A DNA stretch of 40,045 nucleotides from positions 1 to 40,045 of IMG/VR virus record IMGVR_UViG_2778261504_000023; one strand, given 5' to 3'. A program made the translations under genes and the position numbers. The notes beneath the pieces are model-generated. The model did not search any database. It had not been told where the DNA came from and saw only the letters and a program-made list of their open reading frames with translations. This DNA comes from a virus. Lineage: Duplodnaviria > Heunggongvirae > Uroviricota > Caudoviricetes. Below, piece after piece: positions 5,103 to 33,565 of the stretch (its first letter is position 1; the number at the start of each line of letters is the position of its first letter).

Positions 5103-5687
5103 TTATTGTTTGCTTTTTTCGTTCTGGTTGATGACAAATTCAATGTAACTTTCGATCTTTGCTTTCTCTGTTTCAGGTAACAATGCGTAGCGCGAGCGGT
5201 CATAGTTGATAGTTGCAGGGTCGTGCGGGTGAATCAGTAATTCATAGCCGTGACGCCCGAATGCGGATGCAACATTCTCCAGGGTGGAAATGGAAACGCT
5301 GACCTCATTGTTTAACAGGCGGCTGATTGTCACCTGGGCTACGCCGGATGCGCGGTGAAGTTTTCCCTGTGTTGAAAGGTCTCGGCTTTCGCTCATCCAG
5401 CGTTCCAGGTTGTGAGCCGCCAGCTGGCCAATGTCGCTTGGGCCGACAGGCTGAAAACCTTCCTGAGAAAGCGAGCGATCGATATCAAGCCAGTTACGGG
5501 GTTTATTGGCGGCAGCTTCAATTTTTCGTGCAACCTGGTCGCCGATAACCTTCTTGCCAAGAGCCCAGCGGTTTACCAGATTTGCCTGAGTTCCAAGTTT
5601 TTCTGCCATCCGCGTCTGAACACCATTGAATTCACGGTCGATCAAGTCGTTGAGATTTTGCCTGCGGACGTCCTGGATACTTTTCAT
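5103..5687 (-). CDS. Prophage repressor, CI-like but lacking a recognisable S24 autocleavage domain (two HTH-like segments)
   Basis: 194 aa; HTH-like segments QTRMAEKLGTQANLVNRWALGKK and ASGVAQVTISRLLNNEVSVSISTL; divergent from cro-like gene with operator palindromes between; no GDSM/Ala-Gly-Ser-Lys cleavage motifs seen. Confidence 0.6.
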   Translation of the reverse strand: MKSIQDVRRQNLNDLIDREFNGVQTRMAEKLGTQANLVNRWALGKKVIGDQVARKIEAAANKPRNWLDIDRSLSQEGFQPVGPSDIGQLAAHNLERWMSESRDLSTQGKLHRASGVAQVTISRLLNNEVSVSISTLENVASAFGRHGYELLIHPHDPATINYDRSRYALLPETEKAKIESYIEFVINQNEKSKQ

Positions 5688-6072: not shown

Positions 6073-6093
6073 TATCCAGCCACAACCCTCTGT

Positions 6094-6118
6094 AGACCGT
6101 CATCCGGCGGTCTTTTCA
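6094..6118 (+). terminator. Putative intrinsic terminator after cro-like gene (tR1-like)
   Basis: Hairpin AGACCG-N8-CGGTCT followed by TTTTC. Confidence 0.45.
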
Positions 6119-8049: not shown

Positions 8050-8111
8050 TTACCTTGAGGGTAATAAAATGTTCTAATTTCTATTGATTTCATATCTTAT
8101 GTGGTTTTTAA
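8050..8111 (+). promoter_or_regulatory. Putative promoter module: palindrome TTACCTTGAGGGTAA plus downstream TATGTGGTTTTTAA
   Basis: Palindrome 8050..8064; 14-mer TATGTGGTTTTTAA 8098..8111 identical to copy at 33612..33625; upstream of gene at 8130. Confidence 0.5.
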
Positions 8112-8129
8112 TTACCTCAGGAGTAAATC

Positions 8130-14386: not shown

Positions 14387-14463
14387 TGGCGTGGCATGCA
14401 GGATTCGAACCTGCGACCAACCGCTTAGAAGGCGGTTGCTCTGTCCAACTGAGCTAATGCCAC
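14387..14463 (-). tRNA. tRNA-Arg (anticodon UCU)
   Basis: Reverse complement folds as cloverleaf: acceptor GTGGCAT/ATGCCAC, D-arm GCTC/GAGC, anticodon stem ACCGC/GCGGT with loop CTTCTAA, T-arm GCAGG-TTCGAAT-CCTGC, discriminator G, encoded CCA. Confidence 0.85.
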
Positions 14464-19992: not shown

Positions 19993-20597
19993 TGGCCTCT
20001 GTAGTAGAGATCTGTAATCGTGCGCTGTCCAATATTGGCAACAGCCGCAGCATTAACAGCCTGACGGAAGCCAGCAAGGAAGCGGGGGAATGTTCGCTGC
20101 ACTTTGAGGCCTGCCGTGATGCTGTGCTTTCTGATTTTGACTGGAACTTTGCTACCAAACGCGTGGCGCTTGCAGATACGAGCAATCCACCGCCTGACTG
20201 GGAATATGCGTACCAGTACCCGTCAGATTGTCTGCGCATTACTGAAATTATGCTTCCTGGTGTACGCAATCCAACAGCATCAATGCGCGTTCAGTACGAA
20301 GTTGGTGCAGACACCAACGGAACAGGAAAGTTGATCTACACAGATCAGCCTCAGGCATGGCTCAAGTATGTCTCTCGCGTTACAGATGTGAACATGTTTG
20401 ATGCCATTTTTATGGAGGCGTTGGCCTGGCGTCTTGCGGCAGCTATTAACATGGCGCTGACTGGGAATGCAGACCTCGGTACGTTTGCCCTCAATATGTA
20501 CAATCGCGTGATTCTTAGTGCTGGCTCGCATAGCCAGAATGAATCACAGGAACCACAGCCACCGGTTGATGAGTTTACCATTGCGAGGTTGTCCTGA
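19992..20597 (+). CDS. Tail adaptor protein (T7 gp11-like tail tubular protein A, putative)
   Basis: About 201 aa; N-terminal pattern NRALSNIG...INSLTE resembles T7 gp11 N-terminus (recalled); size and position match. Confidence 0.55.
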   Translation: MASVVEICNRALSNIGNSRSINSLTEASKEAGECSLHFEACRDAVLSDFDWNFATKRVALADTSNPPPDWEYAYQYPSDCLRITEIMLPGVRNPTASMRVQYEVGADTNGTGKLIYTDQPQAWLKYVSRVTDVNMFDAIFMEALAWRLAAAINMALTGNADLGTFALNMYNRVILSAGSHSQNESQEPQPPVDEFTIARLS

Positions 20598-32232: not shown

Positions 32233-32919
32233 TCAGAAGAACCCTGCCTTGTCGTTGATGTATTCCGCGTGAGTCTGGATATCACGCAGGCATTTGCTCA
32301 CACCGACGATGTAGCAGAACATGGTGGTCAGCTCCGCCGCCGCGCCCGATACATCGTGCCCGTCGTCCTGCAACTGGTTCAGCAGATTCATCAGCAGTGA
32401 GTTCTCCGTCAGGCCGAGAACACCAGACGGGGAATGAATCAGGCTGCGGTAGCCGGGCTTCAGCGGGGCGCTGTAGGTTTTGTTCTCTACCTTCATTGCC
32501 TGCATCACTGCTGATGCTGTGGCGCTGGCTACCTGGTCGGCAACCATCTTTATGCGTTCTTCCTGCGGGAGCGAGTTTTTAATGTAACTTCCGGTGCGGC
32601 GGATCTGAGAAACAACCTCACCTGTAACCCATTTACGAAAGCGGTAGGGGATAGTGCCTGGTGTCACTGCGTCGCGGCAGCGGAGGATCAGTGTGTAGAG
32701 GCCTGACTCGTTGATAATATTGGTTTCGCCTTGACGGCCTAAGTTAAATTTAGCCCTTTCATCATCATCAAGAGATTTTATTGACATAGTGGGGTTTGTC
32801 AGTTGAAGAGCTTTAATAACGTCTTTGGCAACAAACCAAGGATTTCCATCAATAACAATGGCTCGAATGGTTGCTTCTGATTCAAAATGAAAAACAGATG
32901 GGGTTACGTTAGCAGTCAT
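32233..32919 (-). CDS. Bro-N (KilA-N/Ant N-terminal) domain protein, antirepressor-like
   Basis: About 228 aa from ATG 32919 (SD AAGGTGA); FHFESEATIRAIVIDGNPWFVAKDV...NESGLYTLILRCRDA...FRKWVTGEV matches Bro-N consensus; C-terminal domain paralogous to 33232..33489. Confidence 0.7.
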   Translation of the reverse strand: MTANVTPSVFHFESEATIRAIVIDGNPWFVAKDVIKALQLTNPTMSIKSLDDDERAKFNLGRQGETNIINESGLYTLILRCRDAVTPGTIPYRFRKWVTGEVVSQIRRTGSYIKNSLPQEERIKMVADQVASATASAVMQAMKVENKTYSAPLKPGYRSLIHSPSGVLGLTENSLLMNLLNQLQDDGHDVSGAAAELTTMFCYIVGVSKCLRDIQTHAEYINDKAGFF

Positions 32920-33185
32920 AGTGATCACCTTTGTAGTTAGGTTAATCACCACTACCGACGCCAATCGGTTGGTGGTGAACTGTGCAGGGTTGGCGTAACC
33001 GGCTACAAAGGACCCGGCGCACCTTTCGGTGCCCCCACACAGCCCACCATAGAATAGGTGCGCTTTACACATAAAAAAACCGCTTATGCGGCATATGTGC
33101 CTCTGTAGTAACCCGGGACGCCAATCCCGGCACTGGATTTTGCCAGTGCCCGATTACTATGGCACAAGAGGAGTGCGATGTAAAT

Positions 33186-33200
33186 TTACCGCAAAGGTAA
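33186..33200. promoter_or_regulatory. Palindrome TTACCGCAAAGGTAA in leader upstream of bro-N gene
   Basis: Perfect TTACC-N5-GGTAA. Confidence 0.55.
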
Positions 33201-33231
33201 ATATAAGCACTCCTCTTGGTGATTTCAAATC

Positions 33232-33489
33232 TTATCTGGTTTGTTTTCGTAATTGTTCGGCACAATAGTCGAGATGTGTTTGCAGATCCTGCATAGACAT
33301 CTGTGAGCTGGTGACGTAGTTAATCAGTGCAGTCAGTTCGGCAAGTGGGCCATCGACATTAAATCCATCCTTATCGAGATCCCGGAGTAATTTCATCAAG
33401 TGCGATCCCTCCACTAGTGATCTGACGCCTCCCGGCGTGTGAATCCTTTCGGTAAATCCGTCTTCCAGTGGATAGTGATACTGCTGCAT
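33232..33489 (-). CDS. Small antirepressor-like protein (85 aa), paralogue of C-terminal domain of the Bro-N protein, LexA-box controlled
   Basis: ATG 33489 with SD GGAG; IHTPGGVRSLVEGSHLMKLLRDLDKDGFNVDGPLAELT...DLQTH aligns with IHSPSGVLGLTENSLLMNLLNQLQDDGHDVSGAAAELT...DIQTH of 32233..32919; perfect LexA box 22 bp upstream. Confidence 0.55.
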   Translation of the reverse strand: MQQYHYPLEDGFTERIHTPGGVRSLVEGSHLMKLLRDLDKDGFNVDGPLAELTALINYVTSSQMSMQDLQTHLDYCAEQLRKQTR

Positions 33490-33510
33490 CTTATCTTCTC
33501 CATGCAATAA

Positions 33511-33526
33511 CTGTATATTTATACAG
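33511..33526. promoter_or_regulatory. LexA box (SOS box)
   Basis: AACTGTATATTTATACAGTA: CTGT-N8-ACAG with AT-rich spacer, matching enterobacterial consensus TACTGTATATATATACAGTA; overlaps candidate -10 TATAAA on minus strand. Confidence 0.7.
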
Positions 33527-33565
33527 TAGCAAATAATTTGTTTGCTATCCAGCACGTTTTGCAAA

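Follow-up and report, generated by a model that had tools for sequence, protein, structure and literature searches.

The immI region of bacteriophage P1 is annotated with the order Oc4 operator, P51a, P51b, a1, b1, c4, a2, b2, icd and ant. Hartmann et al. 1995 and Citron & Schuster 1992 reportedly found that the C4 RNA of P1 and P7 is cut from a longer precursor, with RNase P acting at the 5' end, to give a stable RNA of about 77 nucleotides (nt). The same architecture was encountered in a stretch of 40,045 nt from a virus of the Caudoviricetes (IMG/VR record IMGVR_UViG_2778261504_000023, positions 1 to 40,045; the whole stretch is called the window in the following). Here, a gap of 312 nt on the minus strand separates the stop of an open reading frame (ORF) of 85 amino acids (aa; 33232) from the ATG (32919) of a gene encoding a 228-aa antirepressor-type protein with a Bro-N domain. 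We consider it quite probable that this gap is an RNA immunity cassette of the P1 immI type, which sets the translation of the Bro-N antirepressor. The heteroimmunity of P1 and P7 lies in the specificity of short loops that differ between related phages (PMC12197685), and the same holds for the relatives of the window.

A second related system is that of the Salmonella prophage Gifsy-1, with the order isrK-orf45-anrP-isrJ. Transcripts of IsrK partly read through its terminator, and the resulting long RNA is translationally silent, the middle of IsrK being paired with about 30 nt of the downstream RNA (PMC4825925). An RNA of about 80 nt (STnc1160/orf45') is processed from the long RNA, and short IsrK in trans led to 139-fold higher antirepressor translation; binding of IsrK to Hfq and activation in trans have been demonstrated for Gifsy-1 only (PMC4825925). 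The 45 codons of orf45 end in a stop that overlaps the anrP start, resulting in translational coupling. The APSE phages (Hamiltonella, Sendosyvirus) have exactly the order of the window, isrK, C4 and Bro-N; for APSE-7 this order is contained in GenBank with putative a' and b' regions and is described in PMC7313666, a paper that draws no link between IsrK and the role of a1/b1. Finally, the published description of satellite phage P4 (seqA, CI RNA, seqC) follows the same logic, in which an antisense RNA is released from a leader by processing and has complementary copies on both sides, and IsrK was considered a structural homolog of P4 seqA by the Gifsy-1 authors (PMC4825925). In P4, however, CI causes premature transcription termination and no occlusion of a ribosome-binding site.

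Scanning of the whole window with Rfam at the curated gathering thresholds identified two families in the gap, both on the minus strand. Positions 33073-33149 match the IsrK-family small RNA (RF01394) with 74.7 bits (gathering score 50), and positions 32968-33054 match the C4-family antisense RNA (RF01695) with 79.5 bits (gathering score 45). The matches comprise model positions 1-77 of 77, terminator included, and 1-87 of 87, respectively. With two curated families in the gap, both at full length, its elements are more than an anonymous leader. IsrK folds into two hairpins, a single-stranded linker and a weak terminator, and C4 into a long closing stem with two inner hairpins. The minimum free energy of C4 is -45.2 kcal/mol, the corresponding fold is identical to the Rfam consensus structure, and the conserved CACCACC tail at the 3' end of the family is kept. 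RNA folding of the minus strand, which had been suggested as a check in a preliminary description of this region, yielded z-scores of -2.45 for IsrK, -3.62 for C4 (-0.74 for the opposite strand of C4) and -5.16 for the complete RNA from IsrK to the ATG (-104 kcal/mol).

Several of these structures had already been noticed in the preliminary description, which assigned them to a long structured leader. The 8-bp stem GGCACTGG/CCAGTGCC is present at 33129-33150 (given there as 33128-33148) and corresponds to hairpin 1 of IsrK. The weak terminator, placed at 33064-33090 before, is the intrinsic terminator of IsrK (33073-33092), consisting of the 5-bp hairpin GCCGC-AUAA-GCGGU (33079-33092) and U7 (33073-33079) with -7.5 kcal/mol, which a terminator scan detected as well; a hairpin followed by a U-run occupies this position in every locus compared. 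The hairpin GCACC-GAAA-GGUGC was also confirmed, at 33019-33032 instead of about 33020-33033, but it is in fact inner hairpin 1 of the 87-nt C4 antisense RNA, which had gone unrecognized. That the features of the region exceed chance was borne out by the two Rfam families, by the fold z-scores and by the abundance of a palindrome described below.

Two segments of C4 have complementary copies on both sides of it. The specificity loop b' CCUUUGUAG (33003-33011), which is the loop of C4 hairpin 2, matches b1 CUACAGAGG (33100-33108) in the single-stranded IsrK linker with 9 of 9 pairs, one of them G-U, and its perfect complement b2 CUACAAAGG (9/9; 32928-32936) overlaps the Shine-Dalgarno sequence AAGGUGA of Bro-N (32925-32931). 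In the multiloop junction of C4, a' ACGCCAA (32990-32996) is complementary in 7/7 positions both to a1 UUGGCGU (33118-33124), the loop of IsrK hairpin 2, and to a2 UUGGCGU (32958-32964), which forms the loop of a small hairpin immediately after the 3' end of C4. From 5' to 3' the segments follow one another as a1, b1 ... b', a' ... a2, b2, the order required for antiparallel pairing. IsrK thus also contains the a1/b1 target domain for C4, and its 5' half (33110-33162) matches c4-a1b1 (RF03163), a model that comprises the a1 and b1 targets and shares an Rfam clan with C4, with 44.1 bits (E = 9e-10). In the fold of the full-length RNA a1/b1 are paired with a'/b' in cis, which resembles the translationally inactive 'structure A' of Gifsy-1 (PMC4825925).

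For a comparative test we used 16 loci, the window and 15 fetched sequences (phiV10, Tyrion, phiv142-3, three Stx-phage types, VT2-Sakai, Gifsy-1, APSE-7, Hafnia yong2, Moraxella Mcat4, SfV, 2H10, PhiR49_2 and P1); the isrK-plus-C4 block as such was found in 247 phage records using a 'distant' BLAST search. Rfam detected C4 in 15/15 fetched loci and, except in P1, also isrK, located 20-26 nt 5' of C4 (14/14). Covariation was assessed using fixed 7-nt probes and 20,000 label permutations. The 7-nt cores of b' were of 14 different kinds among the 16 loci, and the cognate b1 paired 7/7 in 14 and the cognate b2 in 12 of them; loci below this value scored 6/7, partly due to register effects. Just 3-8% of the foreign b'/target combinations reached 7/7, and the cognate score was attained by none of the 20,000 permutations, for b1 and b2 alike. 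Five variants of a' occur (ACGCCAA, AGACCAA, AUGCGAA, CUGCGAA and CUGUCAA), to which a1 and a2 correspond 7/7 in 14/16 loci, the exceptions being a2 of SfV and a1 of Stx1_14744 at 6/7. The a1 sequence changes together with a' in Tyrion, phiv142-3, APSE-7, Stx1_14744 and P1.

The position of b2 directly 5' of the start codon was also a constant feature. A script located it 5-15 nt before the ATG in 14 loci; in SfV and Stx1_14744 the script picked a wrong site, and the true site, read by eye, directly precedes the start codon. Double compensatory changes were present in 12/26 pairs of the C4 stems and in 7/11 pairs of the two 5' hairpins of IsrK. Covariation of the loops and their targets, and of the stems as well, is strong evidence that selection acts on the RNA-RNA contacts and that these determine immunity specificity. 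Between the window and phiV10 a single base of b' differs (CCUUUGUAG versus CCUUUUAG), and since this difference is mirrored in both b1 and b2, the two phages would be expected to be heteroimmune for the antisense-RNA layer. Close relatives have thus already diverged in loop specificity.

The complementarity between C4 and IsrK in the window is nearly continuous (about 27 nt, -39.5 kcal/mol), and that between C4 and a2/b2 consists of two separate short helices (-28.5 kcal/mol), both values being crude estimates that were computed without intramolecular structure and do not serve as primary evidence. By the same crude duplex energies, C4:IsrK ranked above C4:a2/b2 in 12/14 other isrK-type loci, or 13/15 including the window. 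Moreover, b1 often pairs with b' by G-U where b2 has a Watson-Crick pair, and full matches with Watson-Crick pairs only were found for b1 in 5/16 and for b2 in 10/16 loci; the G-U pairs of b1 may tune the competition between decoy and real target.

Upstream of IsrK a promoter scan predicted two tandem promoters on the minus strand. The IsrK promoter consists of the -35 element TTTACA (33179-33184) and the TG-extended -10 element CATAGT (33156-33161), separated by a 17-nt spacer and ending 7 nt before the 5' end of IsrK. A sigma-70-like -35/-10 pair whose end lies 7 nt 5' of the RNA is present in 16/16 loci, and the c4-a1b1 model aligns CATAGT with TATAGT, the -10 element of the established P1 promoter P51b at the homologous position. 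Because the promoter is conserved at the same position and aligns with P51b, IsrK is expected to be a primary transcript and not a fragment of a 3' untranslated region (3'UTR). The second promoter, P_up, has the predicted -35 hexamer TTGAAA (33223-33228; 10/12 matches for the promoter), which is kept as TTG(A/C/T)AA in four Uetakeviruses, and the predicted -10 hexamer TATATT (33200-33205).

The -10 hexamer of P_up abuts the palindrome TTACCTTTGCGGTAA (TTACC-N5-GGTAA; 33186-33200), which lies between this element and the -35 element of the IsrK promoter, centred at about -44 from the IsrK 5' end, and within which the predicted start of P_up would fall. The palindrome is present exactly as it had been described, where it was interpreted as an element of the leader RNA. 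In the window, however, there are 12 copies versus 0.53 expected (5031, 5743, 5791, 8050, 8112, 11626, 11644, 14786, 32153, 33186, 33566 and 36841), all of them intergenic and in promoter positions. The pair 5743 and 5791 is flanked by a repressor-like ORF of the HTH_3 type (5103-5687, minus strand) and by a cro-like ORF. Among the four Uetakeviruses the arms are invariant and the 5-nt spacer varies, and because of these invariant arms and the free spacer we read the palindrome as a DNA operator and not as a hairpin of the leader RNA. It is the probable binding site of the CI-like repressor of the phage, and since the copies are scattered over the genome at intergenic positions, they point to a single repressor that controls many promoters. 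These dispersed palindromes resemble the dispersed C1 operators of P1, and the location of the palindrome between two promoters likewise echoes P1, in which the C1 operator controls the upstream P51a and P51b is constitutive.

Two further repeats accompany the operators. An 11-bp inverted repeat, AAGAGGAGTGC / GCACTCCTCTT (33207-33217 and 33166-33176), fills the spacers of both tandem promoters, with the operator lying between its two arms. Folded as RNA, it would reach -23.7 kcal/mol with a z-score of -7.0; phiV10 and phiv142-3 retain only its core GGAGTGC/GCACTCC, and Tyrion lacks it. A second motif, AACCACATAWG, has 9 matches with at most one mismatch versus 1.35 expected (8096, 14842, 33610, 36885 and others), often a few tens of bases from operators, with a similar arrangement at 8050-8126 and 33566-33630.

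Based on these data we propose the following mechanism. Judging from the homologs, transcription would start at the conserved sigma-70 promoter TTTACA-17-CATAGT with a 5' end near 33149, and a second promoter just upstream would be overlapped by the repressor operator. The first 77 nt would fold as IsrK and, by analogy with Gifsy-1, most transcripts would probably stop at its terminator and give rise to a small RNA. Transcripts reading through would carry the 87-nt C4 RNA, which is presumed to be processed as in P1 and Gifsy-1. Its b' and a' segments would pair with b2 and a2 just 5' of the Bro-N ATG and, as b2 covers the Shine-Dalgarno sequence, C4 would block ribosome binding and keep the antirepressor off, as is assumed from repression in P1 (PMC12197685, PMC8546580). 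The complementarity and covariation were computed in this analysis, whereas repression of Bro-N by C4 is an analogy to P1. The a1/b1 sites of IsrK would represent a second copy of the target in a more continuous register, and decoy pairing with C4, either in cis inside the long RNA or in trans by the short RNA, would free the ribosome-binding site. Because there is neither an icd-like ORF nor a coupling of the orf45 type, C4 would act directly on the antirepressor's own ribosome-binding site, without an upstream coupling ORF.

Some points weigh against this interpretation. The promoters, the 5' and 3' ends, the processing and the read-through are transferred by analogy from homologs, and in the P1 annotation the role of a1/b1 is merely called 'putative'. 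The constitutive downstream RNA of Gifsy-1 (STnc1160) strengthened the toxicity of IsrK, a result that does not fit a simple model of repressor and decoy (PMC4825925). The c4-a1b1 match stays 2.6 bits under the Rfam cut-off of 46.7 bits, a threshold passed by P1, Gifsy-1, VT2-Sakai and Stx2a_F723; the window does show the functional features of this family, namely complementarity of a1 to a' and of b1 to b'. In addition, the single pairings are short (9 and 7 bp), and the crude duplex energies separate own from foreign partners only moderately (-31 versus -24 kcal/mol). With respect to the operator, the sequence alone cannot tell whether bound repressor blocks or stimulates the IsrK promoter.

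We compared the proposed cassette with three other explanations. The preliminary description had assumed in essence a passive structured leader with an attenuator terminator, in which the small RNA arises incidentally or from the 3'UTR of the upstream gene and Bro-N is expressed by read-through or antitermination only. A terminator is indeed present, the Gifsy-1 homolog relies on partial read-through and, as the terminator scan found no terminator between the 85-aa ORF and isrK, some upstream transcripts should enter the region. The predicted dependence of Bro-N on read-through can be retained for the promoters described here, by homology to Gifsy-1 isrK (PMC4825925), and a small RNA ending at the U7 stretch is still expected. 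This RNA, however, would not be the 3'UTR product of 150-200 nt that had been anticipated but IsrK of about 77 nt with its own promoter in the 16 loci, and this promoter is located 7 nt 5' of the RNA in every locus, even in those without an upstream antirepressor-like gene. A passive leader also takes no account of the C4 RNA and leaves unexplained the covariation of the loop with both target copies in 16 loci and the constant position of b2 over the ribosome-binding site. Attenuation or antitermination as the main control is hardly compatible with the predicted occlusion of the Bro-N ribosome-binding site by an antisense RNA whose target copies co-vary, and we regard this explanation as highly unlikely. 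Slightly more probable, but still unlikely, is a C4 RNA that works mainly as a transcription-termination factor like P4 CI RNA, with pairing to a seqA-like upstream copy (IsrK) and a seqC-like downstream copy leading to premature termination instead of a direct block of translation. The layout of three copies (target, antisense RNA, target) is the same, and the possibility was raised by the Gifsy-1 authors, who regard IsrK as a structural homolog of seqA. In P1, loss of translation also results in premature Rho-dependent termination, so that translational and termination effects can coexist. Yet the overlap of b2 with the Shine-Dalgarno sequence, or its location directly before the start codon, in the compared loci is the signature of translational control, and the terminator scan detected no terminator-like element between C4 and the ATG.

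The third explanation, that the region is protein-coding, is extremely improbable. It could encode an N-terminal extension of Bro-N, since an in-frame ATG at 33072 opens an ORF of 279 aa (32233-33072), or a small 'Ash family' or SF0880-like protein, and relatives do carry annotations of long ORFs over isrK and C4 ('Ash family protein', 'immunity region'). The translated segments had no Pfam match even at E = 1, the Bro-N domain begins at residue 18 of the short form, and both RefSeq and phiV10 use the start at 32919. Substitutions in the stems are compensatory, the frame of a conserved AUG comprises 3, 14, 15, 33, 35, 37 or 45 codons or is open, depending on the locus, and in Gifsy-1 conservation is seen in the nucleotide sequence, whereas the peptide is variable. 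This AUG is located at position 5 of C4, and in the SfV-like group its frame is open and in frame with the downstream gene. The variable AUG frames probably explain the annotations of long ORFs ('Ash family protein', 'immunity region', 'phage antirepressor Ant').

The cassette proposed here shares with immI the repressor operator, the two tandem promoters, the b2 site over a ribosome-binding site and the antirepressor gene, and the C4 family is common to P1 (68.8 bits) and the window (79.5 bits). Some differences are evident. The a1/b1 domain of the window is an isrK-type unit with its own intrinsic terminator, whereas P1 stays below the isrK gathering score. In the P1 type of operon, b2 covers the ribosome-binding site of the small ORF icd, which is translationally coupled to ant. 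In contrast to P1 the window has no icd-like ORF, as the stretch from C4 to the ATG at 32919 contains no ORF at all, and b2 is located on the Shine-Dalgarno sequence of the antirepressor itself. The antirepressor is of the Bro-N and not of the ANT/KilAC type, and operator and repressor are unrelated to P1 C1.

Gifsy-1 shows an isrK match of 79.3 bits followed about 25 nt later by a C4 match of 69 bits, which falls exactly on the 'orf45'/STnc1160 segment (L004 997-1080). The weak terminator, the cis pairing of the IsrK middle and the downstream antirepressor-type gene are common to both loci. In the window, however, the frame starting at AUG 33050 stops after 15 codons with a UAG in the b' loop, which makes coupling of the orf45 type impossible, and the b' sequence is CCUUUGUAG instead of CGGUGAU. 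AnrP is an ORF6N protein without similarity to the Bro-N protein of the window, and the Rfam scan of the window revealed no isrJ-like RNA downstream of the antirepressor as in Gifsy-1. The APSE phages belong to another phage genus and host and lack the TTACC-N5-GGTAA operator upstream; their loops differ but are compensated (a' AUGCGAA; b' CCUGUUUAG with matching b1 and b2). The regulated proteins, ANT/KilAC in P1, ORF6N in Gifsy-1 and Bro-N in the window and APSE, are unrelated between the systems; the cassette is an RNA module that is portable.

The c4 and c4-a1b1 motifs go back to 2010 (PMC2864571), every component belongs to a curated family and the gene order is known from the APSE phages; the locus does not establish a new principle. 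The presence and anatomy of the cassette in Uetakeviruses were not found in the literature searched. In phiV10 the annotation of the region is restricted to 'terminator' and a spurious ORF similarity, ZX5 carries an 'ash family protein', and RefSeq (E. coli NZ_OZ039848.1, locus L018) lists the 85-aa ORF and the 228-aa Bro-N protein without an RNA feature in the gap. Among 5,426 complete E. coli genomes, 406 contain the region over 80% or more of its length, and all or part of it occurs in 941. The analysis converts an unannotated gap of 312 nt into a defined regulatory unit with testable base pairs and indicates that epsilon15/phiV10-like phages would control their antirepressor at two levels, by a repressor operator and by an antisense RNA. 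It also makes explicit that 'orf45/STnc1160' of Gifsy-1 is a C4-family RNA and that IsrK is the carrier of a1/b1 sites, and thereby points to a decoy as a simpler explanation of the published IsrK mechanism.

The window represents a temperate podovirus of the epsilon15/phiV10 type (genus Uetakevirus). Its region 32850-33650 is 92-97% identical to the Escherichia phages Phi05_1387 B, vB_EcoP_ZX5 and phiV10, and 79% identical to Enterobacter phage Tyrion. The regulated gene (32233-32919, minus strand) encodes a protein with matches to Pfam Bro-N (7.7e-19) and to PHROG 130 'anti-repressor Ant' (6.6e-53), and its ATG is the start used in the RefSeq annotation. Overexpression of the Bro-N protein encoded at the same position in ZX5, likened to that of the window by gene position, reduced the prophage titre about 1000-fold from about 10^9 to about 10^6 (PMC9782041); this paper makes no mention of any RNA. 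The 85-aa ORF 5' of the gap (33232-33489, minus strand) shows 40% identity (E = 2e-15) to the C-terminal approximately 80 residues of the Bro-N protein, and both match PHROG 450 and PHROG 15539. Because of this identity and the PHROGs in common, we interpret the 85-aa ORF from its sequence as a stand-alone copy of the C-terminal domain of the Bro-N antirepressor. A strong LexA-box-like palindrome, TACTGTATAAATATACAGTT (33509-33528), the sole such site in the window, is located 20 nt 5' of the ATG of this ORF, and phiV10, Tyrion and phiv142-3 show no change in its CTGT/ACAG arms. The site and its invariant arms suggest that the 85-aa ORF would be under SOS control. Divergent from this minus-strand block is the tailspike gene (33685-36312, plus strand).

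A more tentative proposal, which we put forward as possible but rather doubtful at present, is that IsrK, C4 and a2/b2 constitute one general RNA switch with three parts, decoy, antisense repressor and operator, that is reprogrammed via three short sequences changing together, and that a feed-forward induction circuit is added in the window. If true, this switch would unite the separately described systems P1 c4 and Gifsy-1 IsrK. In the circuit, the 85-aa mini-antirepressor controlled by the LexA box would first inactivate the repressor. Loss of the repressor would open the operator-controlled upstream promoter and the level of IsrK would rise, whereupon IsrK would titrate C4, the full Bro-N antirepressor would be released and lytic commitment would follow.

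Several minor observations concern C4 and its loops. Instead of forming the closing stem of C4, its 3' strand (UUCACCACC) can pair with the downstream GUGGUGAU (32941-32978, -17.8 kcal/mol), and this pairing encloses the a2 hairpin. A GGUGGUGA-like segment is conserved downstream, and because its changes, as judged by eye, accompany those of the 3' strand of C4 in P1, Mcat4 and Stx1_14744, it suggests an alternative structure in the unprocessed RNA around 32941-32978. The motif CTACARAGG occurs in 6 copies versus 0.46 expected in the window, three of which are the cassette itself; the three extra copies of CTACAGAGG were rejected as C4 targets and judged to be due to chance. The copy at 6087-6095 (minus strand), by the cro-like gene, has extended complementarity to C4, yet it does not co-vary with b' in relatives, being identical in phiV10 and phiv142-3 despite their differing b' loops. 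The copy at 19996-20004 (minus strand) is antisense inside a structural gene, and the copy at 38921-38929 (plus strand) belongs to the stem of an ordinary terminator. A possible pairing of the loop of C4 hairpin 1, CCGAAAGGUG, with an upstream operator copy (33570-33579) was judged coincidental, because the palindrome spacer varies freely in relatives and C4 hairpin 1 does not follow these changes. Outside the cassette, a phage tRNA-Arg with the anticodon TCT was identified at 14387-14463 (minus strand) by Rfam (73.3 bits) and by ARAGORN.

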